Assembly: GCF_963921235.1 (NCBI RefSeq)
Contig: NC_086097.1
Location: 48,176,001-48,240,000 of the forward strand
Source: Mobula hypostoma
Taxonomy: Eukaryota
Direction: 5' to 3'
DNA length: 64,000 nt
Under the pieces are notes generated by a model. It was not told the DNA's origin. It saw only the letters and a program-made list of their open reading frames with translations, and did no database searches. Position numbers and translations under genes: made by a program. This document shows, piece after piece, positions 6,950 to 52,400 of the stretch (the stretch's first letter is position 1; the number at the start of each line of letters is the position of its first letter).

Positions 6950-8600
6950 TTCTAGTTCAAATTTATTGTTTTCTGACTGCACAAACAACTAAATGAAACA
7001 ATGTGCCTCTGGACCATTGTGCTGCCTCAGAACATATACCACACACAGCACATAAAACAAAATATTGCCACAAATAAGTTAATACAATTTAATTTAAAGT
7101 GCATGTAGTGTGCAGCACAGGTAAACAGTAAACAGCTCACTGTCCTAGTGACGAGACCTTGGTGGTGTCAGGGTCTCAGAGCCTGAGGGAAGAGGCTATT
7201 ATCCAATCTGGCAGTCCTGGTCCTGATGCCCCTGTACCTCCTTCCTGTTGGTAGAGGGTTAAAGAGATAGTTGAATGGGTGGTTGGGATCCTCAACAATG
7301 CTTCAGGCCCTTAGTACTCAATGTGCCCAGGAAATATCACAAATAGAGGGGAGCGAGACTCCGGTGACCTTTTTGGTGGTCTTTACTATCCCCTGAAGGG
7401 TCTTGTAGTCGATGCCTTGCAGCTTCCATACTACACAGTGATGATGTCAGACAGGACACTGTCGATGGTGGCCCTGTAGAAAGTTGTTAAAATGGGAGCG
7501 AGGAGCCTTGCACGCCTCAGTCTCCTCAGAAAATGTAGATGCTGCTGTGCCTTCTTGACTGATGAGGAAGTGTCGTGGGTCCAGGTTAGATTGTCCATTG
7601 TGTGCACACAAAGAAACTTTGTGCTCTTCCCACTGATGTGCAATGGAGAGTGGTTGACCTGTGCCTTCCTGAAATCCACAATCATCTCTTTCATCTTGTC
7701 CATGTTGAGACGCGGGTTGCTCTCACACCATTTGACAAGCCTTTCTACCTCCTCTCTGCATACCAACACATTTTTGCTGATGAGGCCAACCACTGTTGTA
7801 TCATTAGCAAACTTAATGATGTACTTTGATCTGGATCTGGCTGTGCATTTGTGAGTCAGCAGTGTGAATGGCTCTGGTGGGTACCAGTGCTTGAGATGTT
7901 GCTGCTGATTCAGACTGACTGGGGTCTTTCTGTCAAGAAGTCCAAGATCAGTTACAGAGAGGGGTACTGAGTCTCAGTGAGGACAGGTTACCCACCAGCC
8001 TCTGAAGGATGATCATGTAAAATGTGAGCTGAAGTCGATGAAAACAACCTGGCATATAAGGCATCGTTTCTATGTGCGACAGGACAGAGTAAAGGGCCGA
8101 GGATATGGCATCATCAGTGCACCAATATAAGCAGTAGGTAAACTGAAAAGGGTCCAATGTAGCTGGAAAGTGGGAATTTATATGATCCATTACAACCTGC
8201 TCAAAGCACTTCATGATTGTTGAGGTCTGTGCCACTGGGCAGTAATTGTTTTAGGACAATCACTCTCTTGGGCACTGGAATGATGGTGGGTGCCTTGGAG
8301 CTTGCAGAGACAGTGGACTGTTGCAAAGAAATATTAAAGGTTTCAATTTAGACCTCTGTCATCTGGGCTGTACAACTCTTCAGCATCCAACCAGGTGTGG
8401 GTTTACCTGGCTGGGATCCTCTTCATCTCGACTGCAGCTGGACAGGGTGTCTGTTCCTCAGGGGGGAAAAGGACTTTCCTTGATATCACATCATTCATTG
8501 CAACAAATCGTGTATAGAAGGCATTCAGCCTCTTAGGAAGGGAGGTGTCGCCATTGTGAGAGCAAATATGGAAACTCCGTGAACCTCAGAATTATGTTCT
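6950..8600 (-). mobile_element. Degenerate Rex1/Babar-type LINE
   Basis: ORF remnants TSTIMKCFEQVV..LDPFQF..TDDAI and REEVERLVKWC..KEMIVDFRK..KKAQQHLHFLRRL..FYRATIDSVL. Boundaries approximate. Confidence 0.78.
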
Positions 8601-13620: not shown

Positions 13621-15224
13621 ACACTAAGATTACTTTATTGATTGTAAAATTAAGCTTGGTGTTGCTCATGTCCTTCCGTTTTCTCTTCTGGTATTGCTGA
13701 CTCATGATGGGCATGTTTTCTTCAGAAACCAAATACCCAAGTGGCCATACCTCATGCAATAGTGTGAGAAGTCTATTGATTACGAAGGTTACATTGAGCT
13801 TTCCAGCAGATGTCACTGGCCACTGATCAAGAAGAAGAAATCTTGCCTGTTTTTCTCTCCCTAGCTTTGGGCCATGGAAACTCACTATAATGCCTCAGTA
13901 GTTTCTGTGGCTTAGATCAACAGATTTTCTCCACACCAATGATTGAAACATGGCCTACTTTGTGTGCTCATCTACAACATATGAGGGGCTCCTAATATAA
14001 TTTTGATGGAATATAAGGTTACTGAGCATGACACTTCAACTACTTAAACCGTGTTAATAATTTTAAAAAGGATTTTTTTTGAATGCGCTTGTAACTTAAA
14101 TGAGAATCCTGCAGTCACTATGACCTTTGCCGAGGGAATATTTGGTCAAGGGTATGCTACTCAGAAATCTTCTGTTGAGGATTATTTTTGTTTATTGTTG
14201 CCTCTGACATCCTGTGCTTGGTGAAAAAGTATCCCTGGTTGTACTAGCTATCCCCTTTGTAACCTATAATTGTCATGGGGCATGATATAAGAGCTTTTAG
14301 TTGGTCAGCTTCCATGTGTGGCATTAGTTTTGGTGGCAGCTTTATATTGTGCAGGATTTAATCTCTTTCTAAAGCTTTCACCAACGTACACAGGGGGCTG
14401 ACTCTTGAGTGTTTTTGCACTGATAGCTGAAATATCTTGCCGCTGTGGAAAAATAATGACAGCACAGGGCTTTGGGACCCTGAAAACTGAATAACCATGA
14501 AACAAGTTTAAGGGGATTGCTTGCAAAAGGAACAAAATAAATTAACCAGCAGCAAAGAAGTGGCATTTGCCTTTGAATCATCCCCTTAGTGGAAGCATTT
14601 TCACACTTCAGAGGGTGGCTGTGAACTACAGAACTGTGACTGATAGCTTGCAGGTTCACAGGCAATGCCACAACTGTCTAGGTCAGAGCTGTTTAAAATT
14701 TGGTCACTCTGCCCTGGCACACCAGGAAGCCCAAACATATTCTCAAAACAAGGTCTTTGTTAATGTACCTGGTGGGTTATTCATTGCTAAGGGCAAGGGT
14801 TATACTACAACAATTTATCAGTAGACATTAAGTTGTTCAGAATGCTATGAGGCTTATTTTCCCTCTGATGAGATTTTGCACAAAAGGGCTCCTTTGTGAC
14901 ATATTAATGTTTTCATTAATAAGGCTCACTAACCAAATTCTCTCCTGAGTGTTAAAGACACAGTTACTCTCAACTCTTTGATGCAGAGCTAATTATTAGT
15001 GTAAATAGATGGGTAGTTATCAGGTATGCAAGCAGCATCAGTTTGTTTTTGATAATTATTTTTATTTTTTGCATATGGATACGATTCAGGAATCAATTAT
15101 GTCTGTGAGTCAAAGCTACATGTAGATTTGTGGAAATTTAATGTCATCAGGAATGTGACTGTGGAGCTAATAAGGATAATTTGCAATTAGTCCAAGTTAG
15201 TTACTGTTTCTTTCCTGTTTACAG

Positions 15225-15731
15225 GACCCAGGATTTTCTGCATTTATTTTTGACAAGCTTCAAGTGCCTGACTCTTCAAAACGAAGTCGAAATGAAAGTG
15301 AGAGCAGATGTGAGATTTGTGCAACCCACCTAAATCAGCTGCGAAAGGAAGCCATTCAGATGGTCCATAATCTTGACCAGGAATCCAGTCAGGACATACC
15401 TGAGTTGCCACACTGTTCCAACGCCATTTCTTCGAGCAATGCTTCCCAAAATGTGCTCACGCTTTCCTCACAAAGAGATTGGCCCTTTGTCAAAGGACAA
15501 ATGAGCAGACAGCCTGTAAAATCGGGAAATGTAATAAATGGCATGGAGAGACGGAAAGGATCTGGCTGGTCTCAGGGTACAAGCAGCCTTTCAAAGTCCA
15601 GTGTTCAAGTAACTGTTGGTTCCAGTGGTCTGAGCAGTGCTCTGAACTCAGTCACCATTCAGGCACAGCAGTACCTTGAGGGTATGTGGAGTATCTCCAG
15701 AGTCAACAACTTCCTTCCTCATGCCTATCTG
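15225..15731 (+). CDS. KIF26A: Internal coding exon (507 bp, phase 0/0) of kinesin-like protein KIF26A, N-terminal region
   Basis: Acceptor tttcctgtttacag| and donor |gtgagt. Translates DPGFSAFIFDKLQVP...RCEICATHLNQLRKEAIQMV...LNSVTIQAQQYLEGMWSISRVNNFLPHAYL, which matches the KIF26 family N-terminus as I recall it. Confidence 0.88.
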
Positions 15732-16069
15732 GTGAGTAATTTGTTGTTCAATTCTGAAGAAAACAATATCTGTAGATTTAAAGCTTGTTAATTCAAGGAT
15801 CTAGCATTTCCAAAAAAAAAGTTGGAAACAAATGAATACTTGCTTGATACTTCTCAATTTATTAAACTAAAACATATTCTGTTTCCCTCTCAGAGTTTGA
15901 GTTAGGGCAGGTGTGGAGAATGGAATAGGTATAGTGATGTTGAAGCGGATGTTATTTGTGTTGGAAAGATAAAGGGAGTAGAAACAGACACAGGATGGCC
16001 TAATTCTGTTCCTATGTCATATAGTCTTATAGATTGGACTAGTTTAACAGAAGACAGTGGCTGGAGAGA

Positions 16070-27063: not shown

Positions 27064-28478
27064 ACACGAGGAATTCTGCAGATGCTGGAAATTCAAGCAA
27101 CACACATCAAAGTTGCTGGTGAACGCAGCAGGCCAGGCAGCATCTCTAGGAAGAGGTACAGTCAACGTTTCGGGCCAAGACCCTTCGTCAGGACTAACTG
27201 AAGGAAGAGCTAGTAAGAGATTTGAGAGGGGGAGGGGGAGATCCAAAATGACGGGAGAAGACAGGAGGGGGAGGGATGGAGCCAAGAGCTGGACAGGTGA
27301 TAGGCAAAAGGGATATGAGAGGATCATGGGACAGGAGGCCCAGGGAGAAGGAAAAGGGGGAGGAGGGGAAAAACTCAGAGTATGGGCAAGGGGTATAGTC
27401 AGAGGGACAGAGGGAGAAAAAGGAGAGAAAGAGAAAGAATGTGTGTATATAAATAAATAACGGATGGGGTACAAGGGGGAGGTGGGGAATTAGCGGAAGT
27501 TAGAGAAGTCAGTGTTCATGCCATCAGGTTGGAGGCTACCCAGACGGAATATAAGGTGTTGTTCCTCCAACTTGAGTGTGGCTTCATCTTTACAGTAGAA
27601 GAGGCCGTGGATAGACATATCAGAATGGGAATGGGATGTGGAATTAAAATGTGTGGCCACTGGGAGATCCTGCTTTCTCTGACGGACAGAGCATAGGTGT
27701 TCAGCAAAACAATCACCCAGTATGTGTCGGGTCTCGCCAATATATAGAAGGCATTCAGGGCCCCAGACAGTCCTTCCAGGTGAGACAACACTTCACCTGT
27801 GAGTCGGCTGGGGTGATATACTGCGTCTGGTGCTCCCGATGTGGCCTTCTTTATATTGGCGAGACCCGATGCAGACTGGAAGATCGTTTTGATGAACACC
27901 TATGCTCTGTCCGCCAGAGAAAGCAGGATCTCCCAGTGGCCACACATTTTAATTCCACATCCCATTCCCATGCTGATATGCTTATCCATGGCCTCCTCTA
28001 CTGTAAAGATGAAGCCACACTCAGGTTGGAGGAACAACACCTTATATTCTGTCTGGGTAGCCTCCAACCTGATGGCATGAACATTGGCTTCTCTAACTTC
28101 CGCTATGCCCCACCTCCCCCTTGTACCCCATCCGTTATTTATTTATATACACACATTCTTTCTCTTTCTCTCCTTTTTCTCCTTCTCTGCCCCTCTGACT
28201 ATACCCCTTGCCCATCCTCTGAGTTTTCCCCCCTTCCCCTTTTCCTTCTCCCTGGGCCTCCTGTCCCATGATCCTCTCATATCCCTTTTGCCTATCACCT
28301 GTCCAGCTCTTGGCTCCATCCCTCCCCCTCCTGTCTTCTATCATTTTGGATCTCCCCCTCCCCCTCCCACTTTCAAATCTCTTACTAGCTCTTCCTTCAG
28401 TTCGTCCTGACGAAGGGTCTCGGCCCAAAACGTTGACTGTACCTCTTCCTAGAGATGCTGCCTGGCCTTCTGTGTTCG
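27064..28478. mobile_element. Penelope-like retroelement: two truncated copies in inverted orientation, with GIY-YIG endonuclease remnant and 15-bp TSD
   Basis: FTCESAGVIYCVWCSRCGLLYIGETRCRLEDRFDEH..VATHFN. 27130-27752 is the inverted copy of 27844-28468. TSD aaagcaatactgtaa at 27049-27063 and 28479-28493. Confidence 0.88.
27160..27195 (-). ncRNA. Candidate minimal hammerhead ribozyme motif in the Penelope-like terminal repeat
   Basis: Minus strand reads agtc-CTGACGA-a-ggg-tcttgg-ccc-GAAA-cg-TT-gact: helix I agtc/gact, both core boxes, helix II ggg/ccc, palindromic ACGT helix III, GUU triplet. Confidence 0.6.
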
Positions 28479-38282: not shown

Positions 38283-40934
38283 TTTATGATATCCTGCTGC
38301 TTGTGATGTCACCTAGACTAGTCGGTGGATTAAAATCTTGCAGGCATTTTGTGTGAGATTTCTCTAAATAATCAACTGCACCTGTGTAAGGCACATCATT
38401 ATTAATGTGCAGACTGATTGGCCACGTAACCCATCATTATTGGATCACATATGTCAGTGCTCACTCAGCCCTTTTCCACAGAAAACTAGGTCTAACAATT
38501 AATAGCCCAAGCATCCTTTCAGTGACATAATGGTTGTCGGTTATTGTCAATTAACCTGTCTTGCCCAGTGTGAAATACGCTGGAGAAGTTCCTAGTTAAT
38601 TTCTAAAAAGAGTGGATACATTTCTTTTTTCCTCTTTCATATCTTCCTTTTAAGGTAATATTCTTTCTCCTTCTTTCTTTCTTTTCCTATACCTGCCTGG
38701 ATATTTGTTCACCCACCCACGTTCACCCTCTTTCTTATATTTTCTACTCTTTTTAAAATTTGTCCCTTTAATATCATTGGATCTGCTGTTGGCCTTGTTC
38801 TTCATCAAGATGCTCTACTGTCCTCATCACACTGTTATTAGCTAACACTTCCAGTATTACCATAGCTTCCACATGCAAACTAGTCTAATGAACACTGCAA
38901 AAGGTCCCACCTCAGTAATATTTGTGCCTGGATGGAATGCTGTTAGCTGGCAGACACACCAGGTGATTTCCTGCTGAGCCCTCTTTCAGTCTCTGATTTC
39001 TTCTTGTCATTTCCCTGTTAAATACGCACTCATGCAATACTTCTAACTTTCGAAGTGTGGTTTTATAATCAATTCTAAAGGTACAGTTTAGTGGGAAAAC
39101 TAAAAACAGAAGAGCCAAGGAATGCTCTTTCTCTTTAATCAAATCTTAGTTTCTCACAGAAATGGAAATTTTGAAAGTCTCTGATGAAAGTAAAAGCACA
39201 GACTAGTGTTATTTTAATGAGTGTGGTGTTGCAATGCGCAATTTGTAAATTTGGTAGCAGGAAGTTAAAAAGATCAAAGTGGGCATATCAAAGGTTTCAG
39301 AGACTGATTTTGAAAGAATCTTCTAATTCTTACATTGTATTTGCAATTTTCATTTAAGATGCAACAAAAATTAGAGGTATGCAAATTTCAATACCATTGT
39401 GACATTTAGCCATTTGTTGGGTGATCTGCAGCATATTAATAGCAATTCAAGTACAAGGGAATGTTGTGAACTAAGCATTGGGCTTTCATGTCAGGTCATT
39501 TCTAGATTTAACACAGAAAAATATTGGCAAAATATTCTAAAAAGAGAATGTATAGATCATTTTAATAATCAAAGTATTAATTAGCCTGACTTGATACCAA
39601 GTGAAAAACTACATCAGCTCTCAGTACCAACCTGAAATGTTTCTTTCTCTTTCTACAGATGCCGTTTGATCTGACTATTTGCAGGTCTTTCTGTTTCTAT
39701 TTCACGTTTCAATATCCATCGTATTTTCTTTTCTACCATATTCACTCAACTTTGTTAAACCCCAGTTAGGATGCTAAGCTGCACTAATTCTTGCTATGTG
39801 AATAAGAGAAATTCCCAGGACAACAACGCTACTCAAATAATGTCATGTGCAAACAATTGTAAATATTTGCAATTACAAAGAACACTTAACAACCTGGTGA
39901 ATTTTGTTAGCCTGACACAGCTGTAGCTTATGATTATTAACCTGAAAGGCTGTGCAAATTATTATTTTAAAGGATGTGGACAAAATATAATTTTCCTTGT
40001 GTAGTTTGTATTTAGAAATGAATAGTTGCTGAATATGTTCCATCTTGAGCCAACAGCAGTGATAAGAATGCTGCCTCCGTATAATGTTAAACCATATGGC
40101 AGTCACTGACACTTGATGGGTCACTGATAAGCATTTGGTTATTAGAATCGGCCATGAAATGCCTTCTACATAATTGAGGTTACTCAAAAGAACAGGTACC
40201 TTATCAGCTTTTAGCTGTGGGGGCACAGCTTGCTGATGCTCAATGTACTGATTGTTCTGTGACCAAGCATATGATTAGTGTATCGAGGCAGTTTGTTCTT
40301 AATGAAATGGCAGCAAAATGCATATCAGTAACACCAGTGCCGAAAAATGACTAATTTGATGTTCTTCAGTGCATTTCACTGTTTAATTAGTAACTATAAA
40401 CTCTGAGGCATCAATTTGCTTTAACTGTAATGATCAGATGGGTTCCTGCTAAACATTACAGGGAAGGTAATCTTACTGCCTCACTCATTAATTTTTCTCA
40501 TGCCTCCGTTTTATGTTGAGACTGAAATTCAGTGATTGGACCTCTTGGTGTGCCTTGAATCTGCCTTAATTAGTTTGTTGCTGCAGCCAATCCATGTTAC
40601 CGGTTCATGGACAGTGACCTCGAATGTCTATTGTGCAGCCACTTTCTGTGCACTTCCCGATTTTTCAAGCAAACTCCTTGCGCTTATGAATGGTGCCCAC
40701 TGAGCATGTGCAGAACATTGTGAAGCACTCATTCTTAAGGTCACATGGACTCAACAAAGGTGTACAGACTTGGTTTATGAATACCAGGGGCCCTATATAC
40801 TGAACCCACACCTAACTGGAAAGCTGGTGTCTGTATCACTATCATGTAAGAGGATCTATTTCATCTGGACAATTGACAGAGAGGTAGATGGAGTTATCCT
40901 TATAGATGATGTCCTTAAGTTTCTTTGCTCTTCC

Positions 40935-43900
40935 TTCCGTTGCTTTGAGGAAGAAACAGAAGCAGGAGGAGATGGCAATTGTGGACAAGATTAAAGAAAT
41001 TGATAAGAAATATGTTATGGCTCCTTCTGAGGAGCTATACAAACAAAGAACTGAACTTCAAATGGAACACAGTTTACTACTCTCGTCCTCGATTGTAAAC
41101 CAATTAAAGAAAACAAGAAGTGATTTTTATGTTCACAGTGATAAAATTGGCAAGCTGCTGGCTAATCAATTGAAATCTAATTATGTTAAATCTCAAATCA
41201 ATCAGATTTATAACCAAAATGATCGATTGATATTGGATCATGTGGGGATTAATCAAACCTTTTGTGATTTTTATTCTTCTTTATATCAATCAGAGTCTCC
41301 TCGAGATTCTAAATATATGAATGATTTTTTAGATAAGTTAGACTTCCCTCAGATTTCACAGGATATGTCTTCTTTATTAGATACTTCCATTACAATGGAT
41401 GAGATTAAGAATGTTATTTTTTCTATGAATCTGGGGAAAGCTCCTGGCCCTGATGGGTTTACCGTTGAATTTTATAAATGTTTTGCTTCTTTATTGATTC
41501 CTTGGCTCTATAAGGTTTTTGAGGCTTCTTTGAAACTTGGTAAACTTCCGGAATCTTTTAATAGAGCATCAATTTCTTTAATACTAAAGAAGGATAAAGA
41601 CCCTGCTCAATGTGCATCTTATAGACCAATATCTTTATTAAATGTTGATTCTAAAGTTTTTTCCAAGTTATTAGCAAATAGACTAGAAAAAGTACTTCCT
41701 TCTATTATTTCGGAAGACCAAACGGGTTTTATTAAAGGTCGTTACTCTTTTTATAATATTCGTACATTGTTAAATATCGTTTATACTCCCTCACAAAATG
41801 TTCCTGAGTGTGTTATTTCTTTAGATGCCGAGAAAGCTTTTGATAGAGTAGAATGGCCTTATTTATTTAAGGTGCTTGAAATGTTTAATTTTAGCTTGAA
41901 ATTTATATCCTGGATTAAACTGTTATATCACTCCCCTGTAGCCTCGGTTCGTACTAACTCCTTAAACTCACCTTTTTTTCCTCTCTTTCGTGGTACTCGA
42001 CAAGGCTGTCCTCTTAGTCCCCTATTATTTGATATTGCATTAGAACCTCTTGCAATTGCTATTCGAGAATCTTCAAATATTACTGGGATAACTTGGGGAT
42101 TAAAGTCCCATAAATTATCACTCTATGCTGATGATTTACTTTTATATATTTCTAATCCTGAGAGATCCATTCCTGCTGTTTTAGAGTTATTAGCACAATT
42201 TGGTCTTTTCTCAGGTTATAAATTAAATCTTAGTAAGAGTGAACTTTTTCTGATTAATAAACATCTTCCCTTATATTATAAATTTCCATTTAAATTGATT
42301 AATAATTACTTTTCATATCTTGGGATTAAAATTACTTGTAAACATAAAGATTTATTTAAGACTAACTTTTTACCATTAATAGACCATATTACTCAACTTT
42401 CATCTAAATGGTTTCCCTTATATTTAACTTTGATTGGTCGTATTAATGCAGTTAAGATGTTTTTTTTGCCAAAATTTTTATATGTGTTTCAGGCATTACC
42501 AATTTTCGTTCCTAAATCTTTTTTTGATAAAGTTGACTCTAAAATTTCTTCATTTATTTGGCAGAATAAGAATCCGAGACTGGGTAAAATACATTTACAG
42601 AAAGCTAAGAGAGATGGAGGTTTAGCATTACCTAACTTTAGATTTTATTATTGGGCTATTAATATTCGACATATGAAATTTTGGTTACTTGACCGGGACA
42701 TACTATCTATTCCTAAATGGGTAGCATTGGAATTACAATCTGTTCAGGGTTATACACTTGGTTCTATTTTAGGTTCCTCTCTTCCTTTTGATTCGAAACG
42801 CCTTAAGCAGGTCTCTAACCCGATAGTTAAATATGCTTTGCGCATTTGGTTTCAATTCAGAAAATTTTTTGATCTTAATCAATTCGGGTTAGCGATTCCT
42901 ATTTTAGGTAACATATTTTTTCCTCCCTCTTTTACGGATCGCGCTTTTCAAACTTGGAAGACTAAGGGTATTTTACGGTTTTTGGATTTATTTTTAGATG
43001 GTTCCCTTATGTCTTTTGAACAATTATCTAATAAATATAACTTATCAAGAATACATTTTTTTAGATATTTACAAGTTAGAAATTTCCTAAGTACTATACT
43101 TTCTTCCTTTCCAATGCTTCCTCCTATATATATTTTAGATTCGATAATTAACCTTAATCCATGTCAGAAAGGTGCATCGGCTATGATTTATAATATTATT
43201 ATGAAACTTAGGAAAGCTACATTTGATAAGATTAGGGTAGATTGGGAACAGGAATTGGGGCTTACCATTTCTGTGGATGATTGGGGGCAGATTTTACAAT
43301 TAGTTAATACTTCCTCTATTTGTGCTAAACATTCCCTAATTCAATTTAAAGTGGTTCATAGAGCACATATGTCCAAAGATAAGTTAGCGCGTTTTTACTC
43401 GCATATTAATCCTTTCTGTGATAGATGTTCGGGGCAGATAGCCTCTTTAACTCATATGTTTTGGTCTTGCCCTACTTTGGAAACTTTTTGGAGAGATATT
43501 TTCAATATTATTTCTAAGGTATTAAATATAGATATCTCTCCTCACCCTATTACTGCTATCTTTGGACTACCTAAAATTTCTAGTAATCTTTCCCCTTCAG
43601 CCCGTAGAATGATTGCATTTCTTACTTTAATGGCGAAAAGATGTATTTTACAACATTGGAAAGAGCTTAATGCTCCAACTACCTTTTTTTGGTTTTCTCA
43701 GACGATTTTATGTTTGAATCTGGAGAAAATTAGAAGTAACCTTTATGATTCTTCATTTAAATTTGAACAGATTTGGGGACCTTTTATTCGATATTTTCAT
43801 TTAATGTAATATTTACCCTTCTTGTTTTTTTTTTCACTGTTTTAATGGAGGTCGGGATTGAGGACGTGATTTTAAGTTTAACTCTGTTTGGTTTCAAGTT

Positions 43901-44169: not shown

Positions 44170-44934
44170 AAGTTTCTTTGCTCTTCCAAATTTAAATTCA
44201 CACCTTCTTGATTGTTTTTCTAAACACTTCCCTCCCCTTCCATGCAATCCACCCATTTCCTCTCTTCCAGATCTTTCCACTCTTAACCTGCTGCCCAAGT
44301 CACTCTGTGATCTCTGCTCTCTGTGTTGGAGAAAATGCGATAAAGGCTGGTGTGTGACGTTCTTCATGTGTGCTTCATTCTAATGCTCACGAGGTCTTGG
44401 TCTTCACACACAATAGAATATCTCCCGGGAAACATTGCCCTAAACAGACTTATGTTGCTGCTTTAACACACATTTCTGGCATATTATAACTTCTAGATCA
44501 GGACATCAGTTGTGTTGTGCAAATGTATGGAAGCTCCCAAATTCAGATGTGATAAGTAGGAAGTGGACTTGTCAGATTCTGGATCATTTCATTGCTGATG
44601 GTTTGTGAATTTTAGCTAAACTCAGGGCAGGGTGGTGTCATACACTTGTCGGTATAACAGAGGAAATGATTGCTGCTAACAATTTAATGGCATTGAGAAA
44701 ACCAATTTTCTTTTAGATGCTGGTTAAATTTTGTGACTATTTTGCCAACATGATAAAAAGTTTAATAGTATATTAACAAATGAACAAACCATGCAATTAT
44801 CCTGAGTTCCATTTCTAAAAATATGCTGTTTACACTGTATGTATAGTTCATAAAAACTAGAACACCAATGATTTGGCTCAAAGCTGTCTATGATCAGCAC
44901 TGTTGAAATTTTTAGGAGTAAAATTGTCTCTGTG

Positions 44935-45163
44935 TGAAGCACCTTCAATAACTCCAAAAGACGGAGGTTTGGTAAAATACTGAAAGGCTTTTATTCGCTG
45001 TACAATGCGACCTCCACAGTGAGTGTTTGCCCCCGGACTGAGGGGGAGGGGCAAGGCGAACACCTTTATACAGGACTCTGTGGGAGGAGCCACAGGGGCA
45101 GTCAGCAGAGGGGTGTGTCCAGACAGGTAGCCGAGTTACAACATATATACATGGTTTACCACA
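44935..45163 (-). repeat. 3' LTR (229 bp)
   Basis: Minus strand tgtggtaaacc...gcttca; direct repeat of 49158-49407. Confidence 0.95.
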
Positions 45164-45181
45164 TTCACCCCTCCTTTTTTT
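45164..45181 (-). other. Polypurine tract
   Basis: Minus strand aaaaaaaggaggggtgaa, directly before the 3' LTR. Confidence 0.85.
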
Positions 45182-45232: not shown

Positions 45233-48200
45233 TTACAGGTTAAGTCTATCAGGCGGTCGAGTCCGTCGCTGTGATCTACGTAGCACCGGCGATGGCGGTT
45301 GTGCTGGCTCCGGCCTGACTTCAGGTGCCAGCACGTTAGGCGTCGGTAATCCCTCGTGCGTATGCGTCGCGCCCGGTATGGGAGTGTCGTGTGGTGTCTG
45401 TATAGGGTTTGGGGTGCACGGTGTCTTGTAGGTACATACATTGGTGGGTACGGGGTCAATAGTCACCACGGAGTGTTCAGGGTAGGGGCCCGGAGCTCCT
45501 GCAGGCGCCAGGTCGTGGATGGAGACCGTGTCCTCCTGCCCATCAGGTAAAACCACGTAGGCATACTGGGGGTTCGCATGAAGTAAGTGAACCCTCTCGA
45601 CTATCGGGGAGTATTTATTGCTCCTCGCATGTTTCTGAAGCAGCACTGGCCCCGGGGACGTCAGCCAAGTTGGTAGGGTGGTTCCAGTGGTCGATTTTCT
45701 GGGAAAAGAAAAAAGCCGCTCATGAGGGGTGGCATTGGTGGCTGTGCGTAACAGGGAGCGGATGGAGTGGAGTGCCTCGGGAAGGACCTCCTGCCAGCGG
45801 GAGACCGGCAGTCCCTTTGACCTGAGGGCTGAGTGTGGCTTTCCACACTGTGCCATTCTCCTTCTCTACCTGTCCATTCCCCCGGGGATTATAGCTCGTG
45901 GTCCTACTGGTTGCAATTCCCCTAGTCAGTAGATATTGGCGCAGCTCGTCACTCATAAACGAGGACCCTCCGTCACTGTGGATATAGCATGGGTATCCGA
46001 ACAGAGTGAAGAGCTTGCGCAAGGCTTTTATAACTGACATGGTAGTGGTGTCGGGGCAGGGGATGGCGAAGGGGAACCGCGAGTACTCGTCAATTGCGTT
46101 AAGAAAGTACACATTGCGGTCGATGGAGGGCAGGGGGCCCGTAAAGTCAACACTCAGTTGCTCAAAGGGGTGGGTGGCCTTGATTAGTTGTGCCTTTTCG
46201 GGTCGGTAGAAGTGCGGTTTGCACTCTGCGCAGATTTGGCAGTCCCTGGTCATCATCCTGATCTCCTCAAGGGAGTAAGGCAGGTTCTGGGCTTTCACGA
46301 AGTGGAAAAGCCGGGTGACTCCCGGGTGGCAAAGGTCTACATGTAGGGTGTATAGCCGGTCGATCTGCGCGCTGGCACATGTTCCCCGGGATAGGGCATC
46401 GGAGGGCTCGTTGAGCTTCCCAGGCCTGTACATGATGTCATAGTTGTAGGTGGAGAGTTCGATTCTCCACCTCAGAATTTTATCATTTTTGATTTTGCTC
46501 CGCTGCTGATTATTAAACATGAACGCGACTGAGCGCGCTGGTCAGTTAGCAGGGTGAACCTTTTGCCGGCAAGATAGTGCCTCCAGTGCCTTATAGCTAC
46601 TATGGCCTGGACCTCTTTCTCTACCGCAGAGTGCCGAATCTCAGGGCCTTGAAGGGTACGGGAGAAGAACGCCACTGGTCTTCCTGCCTGGTTGAGGGTA
46701 GCAGCCAGTGCAAAGTCGGAGGCGTCACTCTCCACTTGGAAGGGAATGGCCTCATCCACCGCATGCATTGCTGCTTTGGCAATGTCCCCTTTTATGCGGT
46801 TGAAGGCCGTGTGGGCCTCGGCAGAGAGGGGGAATGTGGTGGACTTGACCAGGGGGCGGGCCTTGTCTGCATAGTTAGAGACCCATTGGGCGTAATATGA
46901 AAAGAAGCCCAGGCACCTTTTGAGGGCTCTGAGGGTGTTGGGAAGAGGGAGTTCCAACAGGGGGTGCATACGGTCAGGGTCAGGGCCAATGACTCCATTC
47001 TCCATGACACACCCAAGGATAGCAAGTCGGGTGGTCCCAAATACACACTTGTCCTTGTTATAGGTGAGGTTGAAAGATTTGGCCGCTTGGAGAAATTTTT
47101 GTAGGTTGTTGTCGTGATCCTGCTGGTCGTGACCGCAGATGGTGATGTTATCCAGATATGGGAACATGGCCTTCAGTTGGCACTGGTCCACCATCTGGTC
47201 CATTGCCCTCTGGAAGACAGATACACCATTTGTGACACCAAAGGGGACGCGCAGGAATTGATAAAGCCCGCCGTCCGCCTCGAAGGCAGTGTAAGGGCAG
47301 TCCTCCCGGCGGATGGGGAGCTGATGGTAAGCGGATTTTAGGTCTATGGTCGAGTACACCTTGTACTGTGCTATCTGATTGACCATATCCGCGATGCGGG
47401 GTAGAGGGTACGCATCGAGCTGTGTGAACCTATTGATGGTCTGGCTATAGTCCACGACCATCCTATTCTTCTGCCCGTTCCGAACAACGACCAGCTGCGC
47501 CCTCCAAGGACTTGTGCTTGCCTCAATGACCCCCTCCCTGAGCAGCCGCTGCACCTTCGACTTAATGAAAGCTCTGTCCCCCGTGCTGTACCTCCTGCTT
47601 TTAGTTGCCACAGGTTTACAGTCAGGGGTCAGGTTGGCGAACAGTGGTGGGAAAGGGATCCTGAGGGTGGAGAGGCCGCAATTGGTGTCGGTAGTGTGGC
47701 AGTTGGCATGGTGTTGGGTGGGATGTGCAAGTCGGTGTGTGTGTGTGCTCAGTAGCGGGGTATGTGACATATCTCTACAAAACAGGGGATTTATGACAGT
47801 AATTGGTGGGAGGGGCCCATCATACTTCATTGTCACGCTTTTCAGGTGGCTCTGGAAGTCCAACCCCAACAGCACAGGGGCACACAGTTGAGGCAAGACC
47901 AGTAACTTAAAGTCCCGATATTCTGTACCCTGCACCACTAGCGTCGCTACACAACCCCCCCGGATGTCTGTTGTATGCGACCCGGAGGCCATGGTGACCC
48001 TCTGACTTACCGGCCGTATCATAAGTCCACAATGCTGCACCGTGGCCAGGTGGATAAAACTCTCTGTGCTGCCAGTGTCAAACAGGCAGCTTGTCCTGTG
48101 CCCCTCCACCAGGATGTCCATCATTGACCTTGCGAGCTGCTGGGGAGCGCTTTGGTCGAGGGTCACGGAAGCCAGGGTGGAGTCGCTGTCTTGGTCCGGC

Positions 48201-49131
48201 GTGGTGGGGTGGCCCGTGAGCACCTGTTGGTCGTAGGTGGTGGGAGGTGGCGCCGACCAAGATGGCCGCCCCCATGTCTCGCACGTGGTGGCAGCGTGCA
48301 GGGAAGATGGCGGCCCCCATGTCTCACACGTGGTGGCAGTGTGCAGGGAAGATGGCGACCCCCATGTCTCGCATGCGGCGCTGCTCGATCCCGCTCGCGG
48401 TTTTGACTTACAGACCTTGGCGAAGTGGCCCTTCTTTCCACAGCTGGAACAGGTAGCTTGTCGGGCCGCGCAGCGTTTCCGGGGGTGCTTCTCCAGTCCG
48501 CAGAAGTAGCACTTCGTGGACTCACGACTGACTGCAGCCGAGGTCGATTCGCCGGCGGGTTGCGATGTCTGCGGCGCCCACGAGGCCATCGGGGGATCGC
48601 GTGCAGAGCCTCGGAGTTATGCAGAGCGGCCTCCAACGTATCAGCCAGCTCGATCGCCGAACTTAGGGTAAGATCGGCTTTTTCCAGCAGCCGCTGGCGC
48701 ACGTACACTAACCTGGTCCCGGTAACAAAGGCGTCTCTCACTAGGAGTTCTGCATGCTGCGCCGCCGTCAGCTCCTGGCGATTTCAGGCCCGTGCGAGTG
48801 TCTGTAGGGCCCGGACAAACTCAGCACTCGATTCCCCGGACCGTTGTTGCCGTGTCGCTAAGCGATGCCGAGCATAGACGCTGTTTATCGGCCGCAGGTA
48901 TTGTCTTTTGAGTGCGTTCATCGCGCTGTCGTAGTTCGGCTGGTCTCTGATCAGCGAATAAACCCGTGGACTGACCCTGGAGAGTAGAACTCTGCGCTTT
49001 GCTACGGGGTCGGTCGCTTTAATCTCCTCTAGATACGCTTCGAAGCAGGCCAGCCAGAGTTCGAAAGTGTTTCCAGCATCAGGCATTTGCGGATCGAGGT
49101 CTAATTTGTCTGGTCTCAGGGACTGTTCCAT
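45233..49131 (-). pseudogene. Gypsy gag-pol, broken by about 4 frameshifts
   Basis: Gag MEQSLRPDKLDLDP; zinc knuckles CYFC..H..C and CSSC..H..C; protease LFDTGS; RT IDLKSAYHQ, VPFG, YLDN; RNase H ESDAS..AVEKE..TD; integrase HHCC and D,D,E (SVDF, HSDG, QVEK). No chromodomain seen. Confidence 0.9.
48259..48373. repeat. 45-bp in-frame tandem repeat (~2.6 copies) in the gag-protease linker
   Basis: aagatggc..cccccatgtctc.cacgtggtggcag.gtgcaggg-like units start at 48259, 48304 and 48349. Confidence 0.9.
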
Positions 49132-49157
49132 GTTTTAAAATGTACAGCGAATAAAAT

Positions 49158-49407
49158 TGAAGCACTTTCAATTACTCCAAAAGACTGAGGTTTGATAAAA
49201 TACTGAAAGGCTTTTATTCGCTGTACAATACGACCTCCACAGTGAGTGGCTGCCCCCGGACTGAGGGGGAGGGGCAAGGCGAACACCTTTATACAGGACT
49301 CTGTGGGAGGAGCCACAGGGGCAGTCAGAGGAGCCACAGGGGCAGTCAGCAGAGGTGTGTGTCCAGACAGGTAACCGAGTTACAACATATATACATGGTT
49401 TACCACA
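49158..49407 (-). repeat. 5' LTR (250 bp, includes a 21-bp tandem duplication)
   Basis: Direct repeat of the 3' LTR with an extra gaggagccacaggggcagtca. Confidence 0.95.
49259..49293 (-). promoter_or_regulatory. Putative LTR core promoter (TATA box plus initiator)
   Basis: Minus-strand TATAAA at 49293-49288 and TCAGTC with its A at 49262, 31 nt from the TATA start. AATAAA follows at 49218-49213. Confidence 0.6.
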
Positions 49408-52400
49408 CTGTGTTAGGATTCAGACTTCTGACATTTGACCTTGAAAGTAACCATAGTAACATATGCATCATAAAAAAAACGATTATCCATTTCCCTCTAT
49501 TGCAAGTGTGTTGTATAGGCCTTAAACTTTGCCCTTGACAATAAATTGTATGAAGAATTGCTGTGGTCAGTTTGCAAATAAAATGCTTGCTTAGCTATAG
49601 CTGTTAAATGTACCGGATGTAAGACGCTGGTTACATAGATTCTGAAGAAATTCAGTGATAAATAATTGTTTATTTTCCACCCCAGGTTTGCATTATATAC
49701 CAAGTTATTCACATGAGAAAAAGTGACAGCAGTATAATGTGTCAAACATGTTGCTATGTACACAGTGGTTGACTTGGAAAGCTAAAGGTCACTGATTTGT
49801 ATTTAAATAAGACAAATGTGAAGTGATAATAGTCTAGCTGATCATAATGAATTCAAACTAATGGGAATGTCAGTGGGTTGCATGATCAGAAAGGGTCAGG
49901 AACTAATAGCTCAATTCTTCATGGCCAGAATGTTTCCAAAAGACATAAAAGGAAGGAAGTTTATTCATCTTATGAATGCATTAAAAAACAAAAAGCCTCT
50001 TCTATATCAGAGCGAAAATAAGGAAATAAGTCGGAAATAGAACTATTCAGTAAATTATTGTGATCCTCAATTAAACACAATGAAGCTGATAGTACAAAGG
50101 AAAAACATAACTTGGAATCTGATATGAAAACAGAATTTGCTGCAAATGCTCAGCAAATTCAACTGGTATTTGTTGAAAGAGAATCAGGGTTAATTTTATA
50201 GGTCAAATAGTGATTATGAAATCTGTTTAGTGAATTTTGTCCCAAGCTTCTAAGTGTCAGATATGCCTGACTGAGGACGTAACACACAAAAGTCTTTCAG
50301 CAGTTTTTAGTGGCAAATCACTAATGTTGAAATATTTACTTCATGATGTTAAGATTTAGCAGTTTTATTTCTGTTAGTTCATGGTATCACTGTGCATCTT
50401 TAAAGTTCCTACTTCTATCAATATATTCTCCCAAGCTACGTATTGACCACCCTTTGACTTACATAAAAGGGTAGGATAGTATGGCAAATTATGAAGTCAG
50501 GTCACTTACTGATCCATTCACGTTAGTGTCCTGTCCACGGTGAAGAGCTTTGGGCAGGAGTCAGCATCCACTTCACCCATTTGCACTGCCCACAGCTCCA
50601 TAGTTGTGCCTGCTTGTTGATGCCTGCAGTTTGATGTTGCCACCTACCTGACCTCTCATCATGGTTACGTGTGAACAATGGAGAGCACCAAACTTGATGG
50701 AGATCAGCTGCCTCTCTGATGGCAGAACCACTCCATTCAATGTCAATGCCAGAGTGTTTTACTGTCAAGAGCAAAGGAGAGCAGATGCAAGGCTGGCAGC
50801 ATATCAATCTTCACTGAATACTGGCTGGTCAAATGATAGCTCAGACACATCTTCACACAGCATCCAAGCACAAGCAGCTCCTGAAGAAGACTATTTTGGG
50901 AGAAAATAGCAGTTGGGAGGTTTCTGCTGCCCATCACACAGGACAGGGATCTGTGGATGACTTTCCTTTTGTTTGCCTAAAGGTATTTTGTTGGTTTGTC
51001 TTTTGAACTGCTGCCGAGTTGAGTTCAGCAAATCCAAGCACCTGTGCATTAACATTTTTGATAAATCTTGCTGTGTGTTTTTCCTGCTGTCATTAGACTC
51101 ATTTTCCCACATCCAGGTAATCCCTCTTAATATTCTATACAGTGATTTGTATTAAATTCATTGGTAGTTTTTTTCCTTTTAATCAATTTTTCATCTGTGT
51201 TCACTCAATTTGAAAACAGAATGGCTGTGTCTTTAGAACAATTAATCCTATTCCAAATGGGGTTTAAATCCAGTTCTCACTCATGCAGGCATATTGTGTA
51301 GTAATAGATGTGTTAAGATGAGAAACCAGCAAAGGACAGATGTCAGATTAATTCTGTTCCGGTTGGTTTAGTATGTTCTCTGATCCATTGAAAGTTGCAT
51401 CACATCACTGTTAGTGAGAATATTATTGCCAATTAGATAATTATGCTGGAGAAACAAAAATGTAAGAAAGGTTAGTCTAAAAGTTTTCAAGGCAAGTAAA
51501 ACATCTGTTTGAGAGAAGGAGAAATATTGACAATGAGAGAGATATAGATGTTCAGCTTTAAAAATATGCAGCACCTTGGAATTTGTTCAGTTCCTTTTCC
51601 AGAGAAATATTTATTGTTTTATTCGTTACTTTTATAACTTAACCAGTCTTGCACAAATGGGTGCATTTGTTGCACAAGGATATTAGCTACATCATTCTCT
51701 TTTAGAAATATATGTTACCCAGGGGAGAAAGCCTGAGCCTTATTAGCAGTTCACTAAATGTAGTCAGCAGGTCTGTTCCGAGCTGTTGAAAAAGTAAGTG
51801 ACATTAACTCTTCCTTGCAAGTATGTAGGACCAAGCCTTCCAAAATATTTAAAAAATCTATCAGTTGGCAAGTTTACTTCGTGACTTAGTGGGTAAGTAC
51901 ATCAATGGGTAGTGTGTCAGACAACATGAGCATGTCCTGCGTTCAAGCCCTTTGCAGGTGAGTTGGGTGAGCAGAGCTTGGGTCACCGTGATTGGTCTCA
52001 GTGACTCAGGGTTAAGATCAAAGTTGCCAGCCAGGGCTTCTGGTCCCAGTTGTTACTTGTTGATTGATGTTGAAATGAAGGCGCAAGAGCTGAAGGGGTT
52101 AGAACTTGACAGAGTCCAATGATTCCAAGAATCAGTGGCTGAAGAAGTTAATTACTAACACAGAAAACAGAGTTGGTTGAATCTGGAACACACACTAAGT
52201 TGTTGCTTGTGGTATTGAATTGTTGCCTGTAAAGGTTAACAACCGCATCTACGCAGCATGGGTCCCGATAGAGAAGGAAATCAGTGCTTATGATTTGAAT
52301 CCTTTACTAATAAATAGATTTTGATTTTAGTAATAAAAACATTATTAAGCTAATTCACAAACTTGATGGAAAACATGACAGAGGTAAAGAAGGGCCATTC

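Follow-up and report, generated by a model that had tools for sequence, protein, structure and literature searches.

We show here by sequence comparison that in a Ty3/Gypsy element of Mobula hypostoma and in its relatives the primer-binding-site (PBS) position pairs, as read from the predicted folds, with an R-region arm of the element's own LTR, that the pairing lies 1 nt after U5, and that it is followed by a second, RCC/GGY stem. The tRNA-independent priming through LTR/leader pairing that the initial annotation had suspected in an element without chromodomain is supported by this pairing, by its covariation and by the absence of TGG. We consider it quite probable that the element primes itself in the manner of Tf1, with a cut at the 3′ end of the arm.

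The element is 4.5 kb long and occupies the minus strand from 49407 to 44935 of the window, by which we mean the whole stretch of 64,000 nucleotides that was analysed (Table 1). It is a Ty3/Gypsy LTR retrotransposon: it has LTRs bounded by TG and CA, a target-site duplication, a polypurine tract (PPT) and the domain order PR-RT-RH-IN, i.e., the Gypsy order, and its top match in the PDB is the reverse transcriptase (RT) of Ty3 (E = 2e-42). The gag-pol of this copy is split over five reading-frame pieces. The two LTRs are identical at 220 of 229 aligned bases, and the 5′ LTR additionally holds a 21-bp duplication. All coordinates given earlier for the leader without TGG behind the 5′ LTR hold.

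Table 1. Features of the element and of its LTR/leader hairpin (window coordinates).
Feature	Position	Strand	Description
Target-site duplication, upstream copy	49408-49412	minus	5 bp, CACAG
5′ LTR	49158-49407	minus	250 bp, TGT...TCA (49407-49158 on the element strand)
Predicted TATA box	49288-49293	minus	sequence motif at −82 from the arm end
Initiator-like TCAGTC	49259-49264	minus	predicted upstream transcription start at 49262 (−51)
LTR arm, predicted self-primer	49212-49227	minus	16 nt
11-nt arm core	49222-49212	minus	49222 is A(−11), the other candidate for the start; 49221 is the invariant G(−10)
AATAAA poly(A) signal within the arm	49213-49218	minus	sequence motif
Predicted cleavage point (arm end/RCC)	49211-49212	minus	would give the primer 3′-OH; from the fixed pairing end, the conserved A/RCC junction and the Tf1 analogy
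Inner stem P2 and loop	49164-49211	minus	begins at the RCC directly after the arm; partner strand near 49170-49164
Leader	49157-49132	minus	26 nt, between 5′ LTR and gag ATG
Single-base spacer	49157	minus	between LTR CA and leader arm
Leader arm at the PBS position	49141-49156	minus	exact complement of the LTR arm, no TGG
gag ATG	49131	minus	
gag-pol	45233-49131	minus	Gag with two zinc knuckles, protease, RT, RNase H, integrase
PPT	45164-45181	minus	
3′ LTR	44935-45163	minus	229 bp; second copy of the arm at 44989-45004
Target-site duplication, downstream copy	44930-44934	minus	5 bp

Some further observations concern the element and its surroundings. The PPT/LTR junction (45164-45170) ends in AA/TG in the window copy and in most of the readable relatives, and three 45-nt tandem repeats (48259-48393) lie between the zinc knuckles and the protease. 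On the plus strand the element is adjoined by a LINE open frame of 967 aa (40906-43809; RVT_1, zf-RVT), and farther away there are an exon-like frame with a match to the KIF26A/B tri-helical domain (15201-15791, plus) and a weak GIY-YIG match (27648-28271, plus; E = 6e-5) that may be a Penelope-like remnant. An ALKBH8_N match at 7431-7973 (minus) is presumably a LINE fragment. ARAGORN reports a 91-nt tRNA-Gly at 46386-46476 (plus), antisense to pol, which is probably a false call.

Positions in the hairpin are numbered backwards, with −1 (49212) as the last base of the LTR arm that is paired. Several claims of the initial annotation were reproduced: all 16 nt of the leader arm are the reverse complement of the LTR arm, the pairing begins 1 nt past the LTR CA, the 16-mer is intact in the 3′ LTR, and the suggested inner pairing of ctttca with tgaaag appears in the predicted fold of the window copy. 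The LTR-leader region folds with z = −6.4, none of 200 shuffles being equally stable, and none of 3000 shuffled leaders had more than 11 bases complementary to the LTR of the window copy, compared with the 16 observed. The AATAAA is paired in the predicted 5′ fold and mostly unpaired in the predicted fold of the 3′ LTR. At 49166 the window copy has an A where the sister copies have a G, which gives these a stronger inner pairing.

The 3.48 Gb genome of M. hypostoma yielded 2100 first-look candidates for the LTR-leader-gag stretch, of which 80 loci were read (78 places, two of them fetched twice, the window copy included). At least 14 of the 16 arm pairs are kept in 72 of these loci and at least 12 in 78; both loci below 12 pairs have deletions. 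A TGG-type PBS in sister copies had been named as the mark of a one-off rearrangement; TGG stands at the LTR edge in none of the 80. In a sister subfamily, B (21 loci), both arms have different letters, with compensatory changes at −8, −11 and −15; the arm pair is unmutated in 11 of the 21, one locus has an additional compensated change at −9, and four others show a G-U intermediate in the arm. Many copies of subfamily A have G-U at −16. When the genome was searched for gag with a diverged protein, only subfamilies A and B were found among the 30 loci cut out, and a second gag search listed largely the same places.

The nearest named protein, 78% identical over RT-RNase H, is from the ray Narcine bancroftii. 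In the databases the relatives consist of one ORF of about 1240-1300 aa and lie mostly on contigs of 4-4.5 kb; the named ones (Narcine, Myxine, Trichuris, Periplaneta, Palaemon and Trichinella) are known from their proteins alone, and the hairpin counts rest on metagenome and own-genome DNA. A scan of metagenomes gave 80 loci; 34 of them have a gag start plus upstream DNA, which makes 35 starts. The RTs of the metagenome relatives are 43-62% identical to that of the window copy. Without any motif filter, at least 10 of 11 bases are paired between LTR arm and leader in 30 of the 35 starts (perfectly in 27), with compensatory changes, and in 26 of these 30 the duplex is spaced 1 nt from the LTR CA. 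Complementarity is thus kept in diverged relatives, on which the initial annotation had made its reading depend. In the shuffle control at least 10 pairs were found in 15 of 210 cases, one of them at CA+1. Several of the metagenome loci share families, so that the counts represent about 20 independent families. The five starts that fail are from L040 (arm off the contig), L085 (no recognisable LTR), L093 and L095 (decayed) and a second element in L105 (unclear). Target duplications of 5 bases are readable in 7 of the 15 metagenome loci with paired LTRs. A viral contig collection yielded one distant locus among 74 candidates, and a search of the ESM Atlas generic Gag clusters only.

Further evidence for the helix comes from covariation, the check that had been suggested for the leader and the LTR 16-mer. 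In 18 aligned families 12 of the 16 pairs change on both sides, and double-change cells number 59 as compared with 16.8 in shuffles. The covariation score is 0.563 (shuffled, 0.160; with slid partners, 0.07-0.13), and RNAalifold finds the helix unaided, with 13 pairs. On average an arm pairs over 14 nt with its own leader and over 4.5 nt with the leaders of other families. The rows used for the covariation test and for this comparison of own and foreign leaders were picked for a repeat of at least 10 bp, and some are related; because of this choice the perfect core is partly a product of selection, and the unfiltered metagenome count is the unbiased one.

Some letters are conserved across the families. 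In 20 rows AAA occupies −3 to −1, G stands at −10 in all 20, A at −11 in 17 and T in the remaining three, and the arm is directly followed by RCC or RCT. The inner RCC/GGY stem has at least 4 bp in 15 of 19 rows, and its clade-wide length sum is 79, compared with a shuffled mean of 52 and a maximum of 69 in 2000 shuffles. A duplex of the leader 3′ of the PBS with the loop is weak at best (115 vs. 105.9, p about 0.05). A reading of the pyrimidine-AG motif as a splice acceptor is rejected, since three of the 20 rows have T in place of the A, whereas the G never varies. The arms of L051, L032 and L035 look, by eye, as if slipped by one base (internal loss, gain of a terminal A); in each the arm still ends 11 nt from A(−11), as if measured with a ruler.

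From these findings and by analogy with Tf1 we propose the following sequence of events. The 5′ end of the transcript would fold back on the leader, and the element's RNase H, a domain found in 39 of 39 intact relatives, would cut at the junction of the two helices, between 49212 and 49211. The freed 3′-OH of the arm would then be extended over the unpaired end of U5 to give minus-strand DNA. This strong-stop DNA could jump to the 3′ end via the R sequence downstream of the cut. As a side benefit the same fold would hide the 5′ AAUAAA.

Where the priming RNA starts can be argued in two ways. For an upstream start at the TATA/initiator (Inr) pair speaks that 69 of the 78 loci of the genome have a TATAAA/AATAAA variant at a distance of 30-34 nt from the Inr (by motif pattern), and that the distance from the TATA-like box to TCAGTC is 31 nt in subfamily A and 33 nt in subfamily B, with a diverged spacer between them. 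In the metagenome relatives a fixed TATA spacing was not found, and no fixed downstream element was seen by eye. Pairing extends beyond −11: at −12 to −16 it amounts to 72/100 (permuted, 40.5; maximum 64 in 20000 permutations) and falls to background beyond −16, and L041 and L076 have duplexes of 18-19 bp. A primer beginning at −11 leaves the pairing at −12 to −16 without explanation. Together with the conserved TATA/Inr this pairing points to an internal arm, for which the compensation at −15 in subfamily B also counts.

Other features of the alignment favour a 5′-terminal primer of 11 nt as in Tf1. The motif H-H-A-G-Y places A at −11 in 15 of 18 rows, as compared with 0.35 per position elsewhere. 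It resembles the animal initiator consensus. The initiator is given as TCAKTY in PMC3601003. Two relatives, L092 and L108, have very short LTRs (L092:1266-1356, 91 bp; L108:1373-1455, 83 bp), in which A(−11) is preceded by no more than 34 and 41 nt, and in both exactly 11 positions pair. L108, which lies outside the filter, keeps the 11-position duplex from AG on and the inner stem, with an arm that ends in AAGA and has no TAAA. The invariant G(−10), the usual A(−11), the Inr-like context and these two short-LTR relatives thus suggest a terminal primer.

We give somewhat less than an even chance to a start of the priming RNA at 49222, with an 11-nt terminal primer as in Tf1. About the same weight, again a little short of even, goes to a start at 49262, which would make a 51-nt primer with an unpaired 5′ tail of 35 nt. 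Both starts may be used. In Tf2, according to PMC5341516, alternative start sites decide whether an RNA can be reverse-transcribed, and for this reason starts at both −51 and −11 could be real. The different priming geometry postulated initially, with the arm at +36 to +51, thus agrees with the conserved TATA/Inr; the 11-nt spacing of AG speaks against it and suggests a terminal primer like that of Tf1. In an RNA from 49262, bases +2 to +11 (49252-49261) are predicted to pair with the first gag codons (49113-49123, minus strand), and at one position subfamily B has A-U where the window family has G-U (by eye), a weak hint for the upstream start.

The bases beyond −11 are also what recommends another primer, the copy of the arm in the 3′ LTR, which holds them whatever the start site. 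The 3′ R would be trimmed to the arm end and would anneal to the leader, within a circle or from one RNA to another. The 3′ LTR has the arm without any change, and the mostly unpaired AATAAA in the 3′ fold fits as well. Such a primer demands, however, the exact removal of the poly(A) tail and of the rest of R, and only in the local 5′ fold is an inner stem stacked on the duplex, framing the U5 template. We know of no precedent and hold this explanation to be improbable. In a milder form of it the 5′ primer is kept, and the 3′ copy invades the leader via a toehold at −12 to −16, which would guide strand transfer.

A slightly poorer prospect, in our estimate, is that the hairpin merely hides the 5′ poly(A) signal, allowing read-through of the 5′ LTR, and that another primer is used. 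Masking had been suggested for the window copy, and 12 of 20 rows have A(A/T)TAAA inside the arm; the signal is paired in the 5′ fold and mostly free in the 3′ fold. In the other 8 rows, however, the arm has no hexamer; in L032 it is found 26 nt downstream of the arm and in L031 in the inner loop, and the arm of L108 is without TAAA altogether. Hiding a signal does not require that the pairing starts exactly at CA+1, as it does in 26 of 30 starts, and the leaders of 15-35 nt hold no other primer site. Masking thus fits the window copy but not the clade; it is plausible as a side effect and at most secondary to priming.

Priming by a host tRNA, a tRNA half or another small RNA, with the LTR match being incidental, is very improbable. 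Most LTR elements are primed by tRNA, and some copia lineages are known to use half-tRNAs (PMC6317226). Against it stands the lack of TGG in the window copy and in the own-genome loci. An Rfam scan of the region gave no tRNA or ribozyme family even at E = 10, its three matches being at chance level. Each leader matches its own LTR and not the LTRs of others, so that a different host RNA would be needed for each family; as far as sequences can tell, the covariation largely refutes this explanation. A one-off inversion or fold-back artefact, for which nothing speaks beyond the decay of the window copy, is refuted by the hairpins of the sister copies, by subfamily B with its different letters and by the relatives with 43-62% RT identity, and we give it practically no weight.

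The self-priming in the manner of Tf1 that we prefer would occur in elements that differ from the chromoviruses. The initial annotation had described an element without chromodomain, and in fact a Pfam search of the C-terminal piece of the window copy found no match to this domain, nor was one found in any of 39 intact relatives (Pfam, E 0.01). The GPY/F module (SH3_Tf2-1) is likewise found in 0 of 39; the same model does find other elements in the Mobula genome, where Gypsy elements with SH3_Tf2-1 are abundant (5456 first-look candidates). Four of these were fetched as a control; they were too decayed for a comparison of LTRs, and two gave partial RTs. In a quick maximum-likelihood tree, in which no named Tf1/sushi sequence was included, the clade has an SH-aLRT support of 99 on a long stem, and the chromodomain-bearing proteins are separate (96). 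An AU test did not reject a grouping with the chromovirus P0189 (p = 0.076). The RT is about 30-32% identical to those of elements bearing a chromodomain or SH3. The clade likely acquired self-priming independently of the chromoviruses.

The clade may already have a name. Cigr-1 measures about 4.2 kb and is compact, with a single ORF. The Mag lineage has Gags with two zinc knuckles and 5-bp target duplications, and some of its members use tRNA primers. The Cigr-1 clade and the Mag lineage resemble the window clade in these traits of size, ORF, Gag and duplication and are candidate names. No named Cigr-1 or Mag reference was among the database matches, and a motif search of five supplementary files of PMC6238403 gave no match. 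Saci-2 was set aside: its Gag is of the CCCH type, and its relatives have 4-bp duplications and tRNA sites.

The likeness to Tf1 and Tf2 of Schizosaccharomyces pombe and to the Tf1/sushi chromoviruses (Tj1, Tosmo1-3, Tcry1, Tcn1) is that there is no tRNA site, that the PBS position pairs with the element's own LTR and that extra helices lie beside the primer duplex. The primer of Tf1 consists of the first 11 bases of its RNA, which are paired to the PBS and severed from base 12 by RNase H (PMC7175516); a unit of 11 nt recurs here as the fixed distance from A(−11) to the arm end. Tf1 RNA adopts a "pretzel" fold of three duplexes (PMC10085805). Unlike Tf1/sushi, the clade lacks chromodomain and SH3_Tf2-1, and its RT is on a separate long branch. 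Its duplex usually runs upstream to 13-19 bp and does not end at the 5′ end as in Tf1, its second helix is the local RCC/GGY stem, with the downstream duplex of the pretzel (PMC10085805) weak or absent, and the predicted promoter of the window family lies 40 nt further upstream.

The copia elements of the TAR lineage (Houba, Osr-1) are predicted self-primers, too, with an LTR region complementary to the sequence 0-5 nt past the 5′ LTR, on computation only (PMC6317226). They are, however, plant elements of the Copia superfamily, whereas the window element has the Gypsy domain order. A canonical PBS is also missing from the fungal GalEa, which has a conserved hairpin site, from Dictyostelium Skipper with its polypyrimidine tract, and from bivalve TRIMs; a complementarity of the LTR to the PBS position is not reported for these in the available portions of PMC5445492 (GalEa), PMC5006619 (Skipper) and PMC6934838 (bivalve TRIMs), whereas the window clade is defined by it.

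A literature search, with Repbase/GyDB and key older papers outside its reach, found no description of self-priming in the clade, and an earlier mention is quite possible. In the available parts of the articles consulted, self-priming is named only for Tf1/sushi, Tcn1 and TAR copia (PMC3601003, PMC6317226, PMC6934838, PMC12471100, PMC2582038, PMC7175516, PMC6238403), and the same restriction holds for the accessible text of a further group (PMC5006619, PMC8220671, PMC5341516, PMC10085805, PMC13524379, PMC5445492).

So far Tf1 alone has been shown to prime itself, and the trait is described as characteristic of the Tf1/sushi chromoviruses, with the TAR copia elements as a computational extension. 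A probable self-primer with strong covariation is now seen in a second Gypsy clade, the proteins of which are found in rays, hagfish, nematodes, an insect and a shrimp. Priming without tRNA must then be either old or have arisen repeatedly, which bears on the question whether hairpin priming preceded tRNA priming, raised in PMC3601003. Our more specific proposal, that a widespread, so far undescribed animal Gypsy clade gained self-priming independently of the chromoviruses and that in the window lineage the primer is an arm inside R, carried by a capped fragment of about 51-54 nt, is tentative, with the chances rather against it. If it is true, the primer needs no free 5′ end at the duplex, a single helix does duty for priming and for masking the poly(A) signal, and it could depend on the start used, −51 or −11, whether an RNA goes into translation or into reverse transcription.

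The elements of this clade would be overlooked or mislabelled by any annotation for which a tRNA site is required. Silencing by 3′ tRNA fragments directed at the PBS would, we expect, not reach them. The natural alignment offered by the clade points to the probable cut site and to one G-C pair that does not vary.
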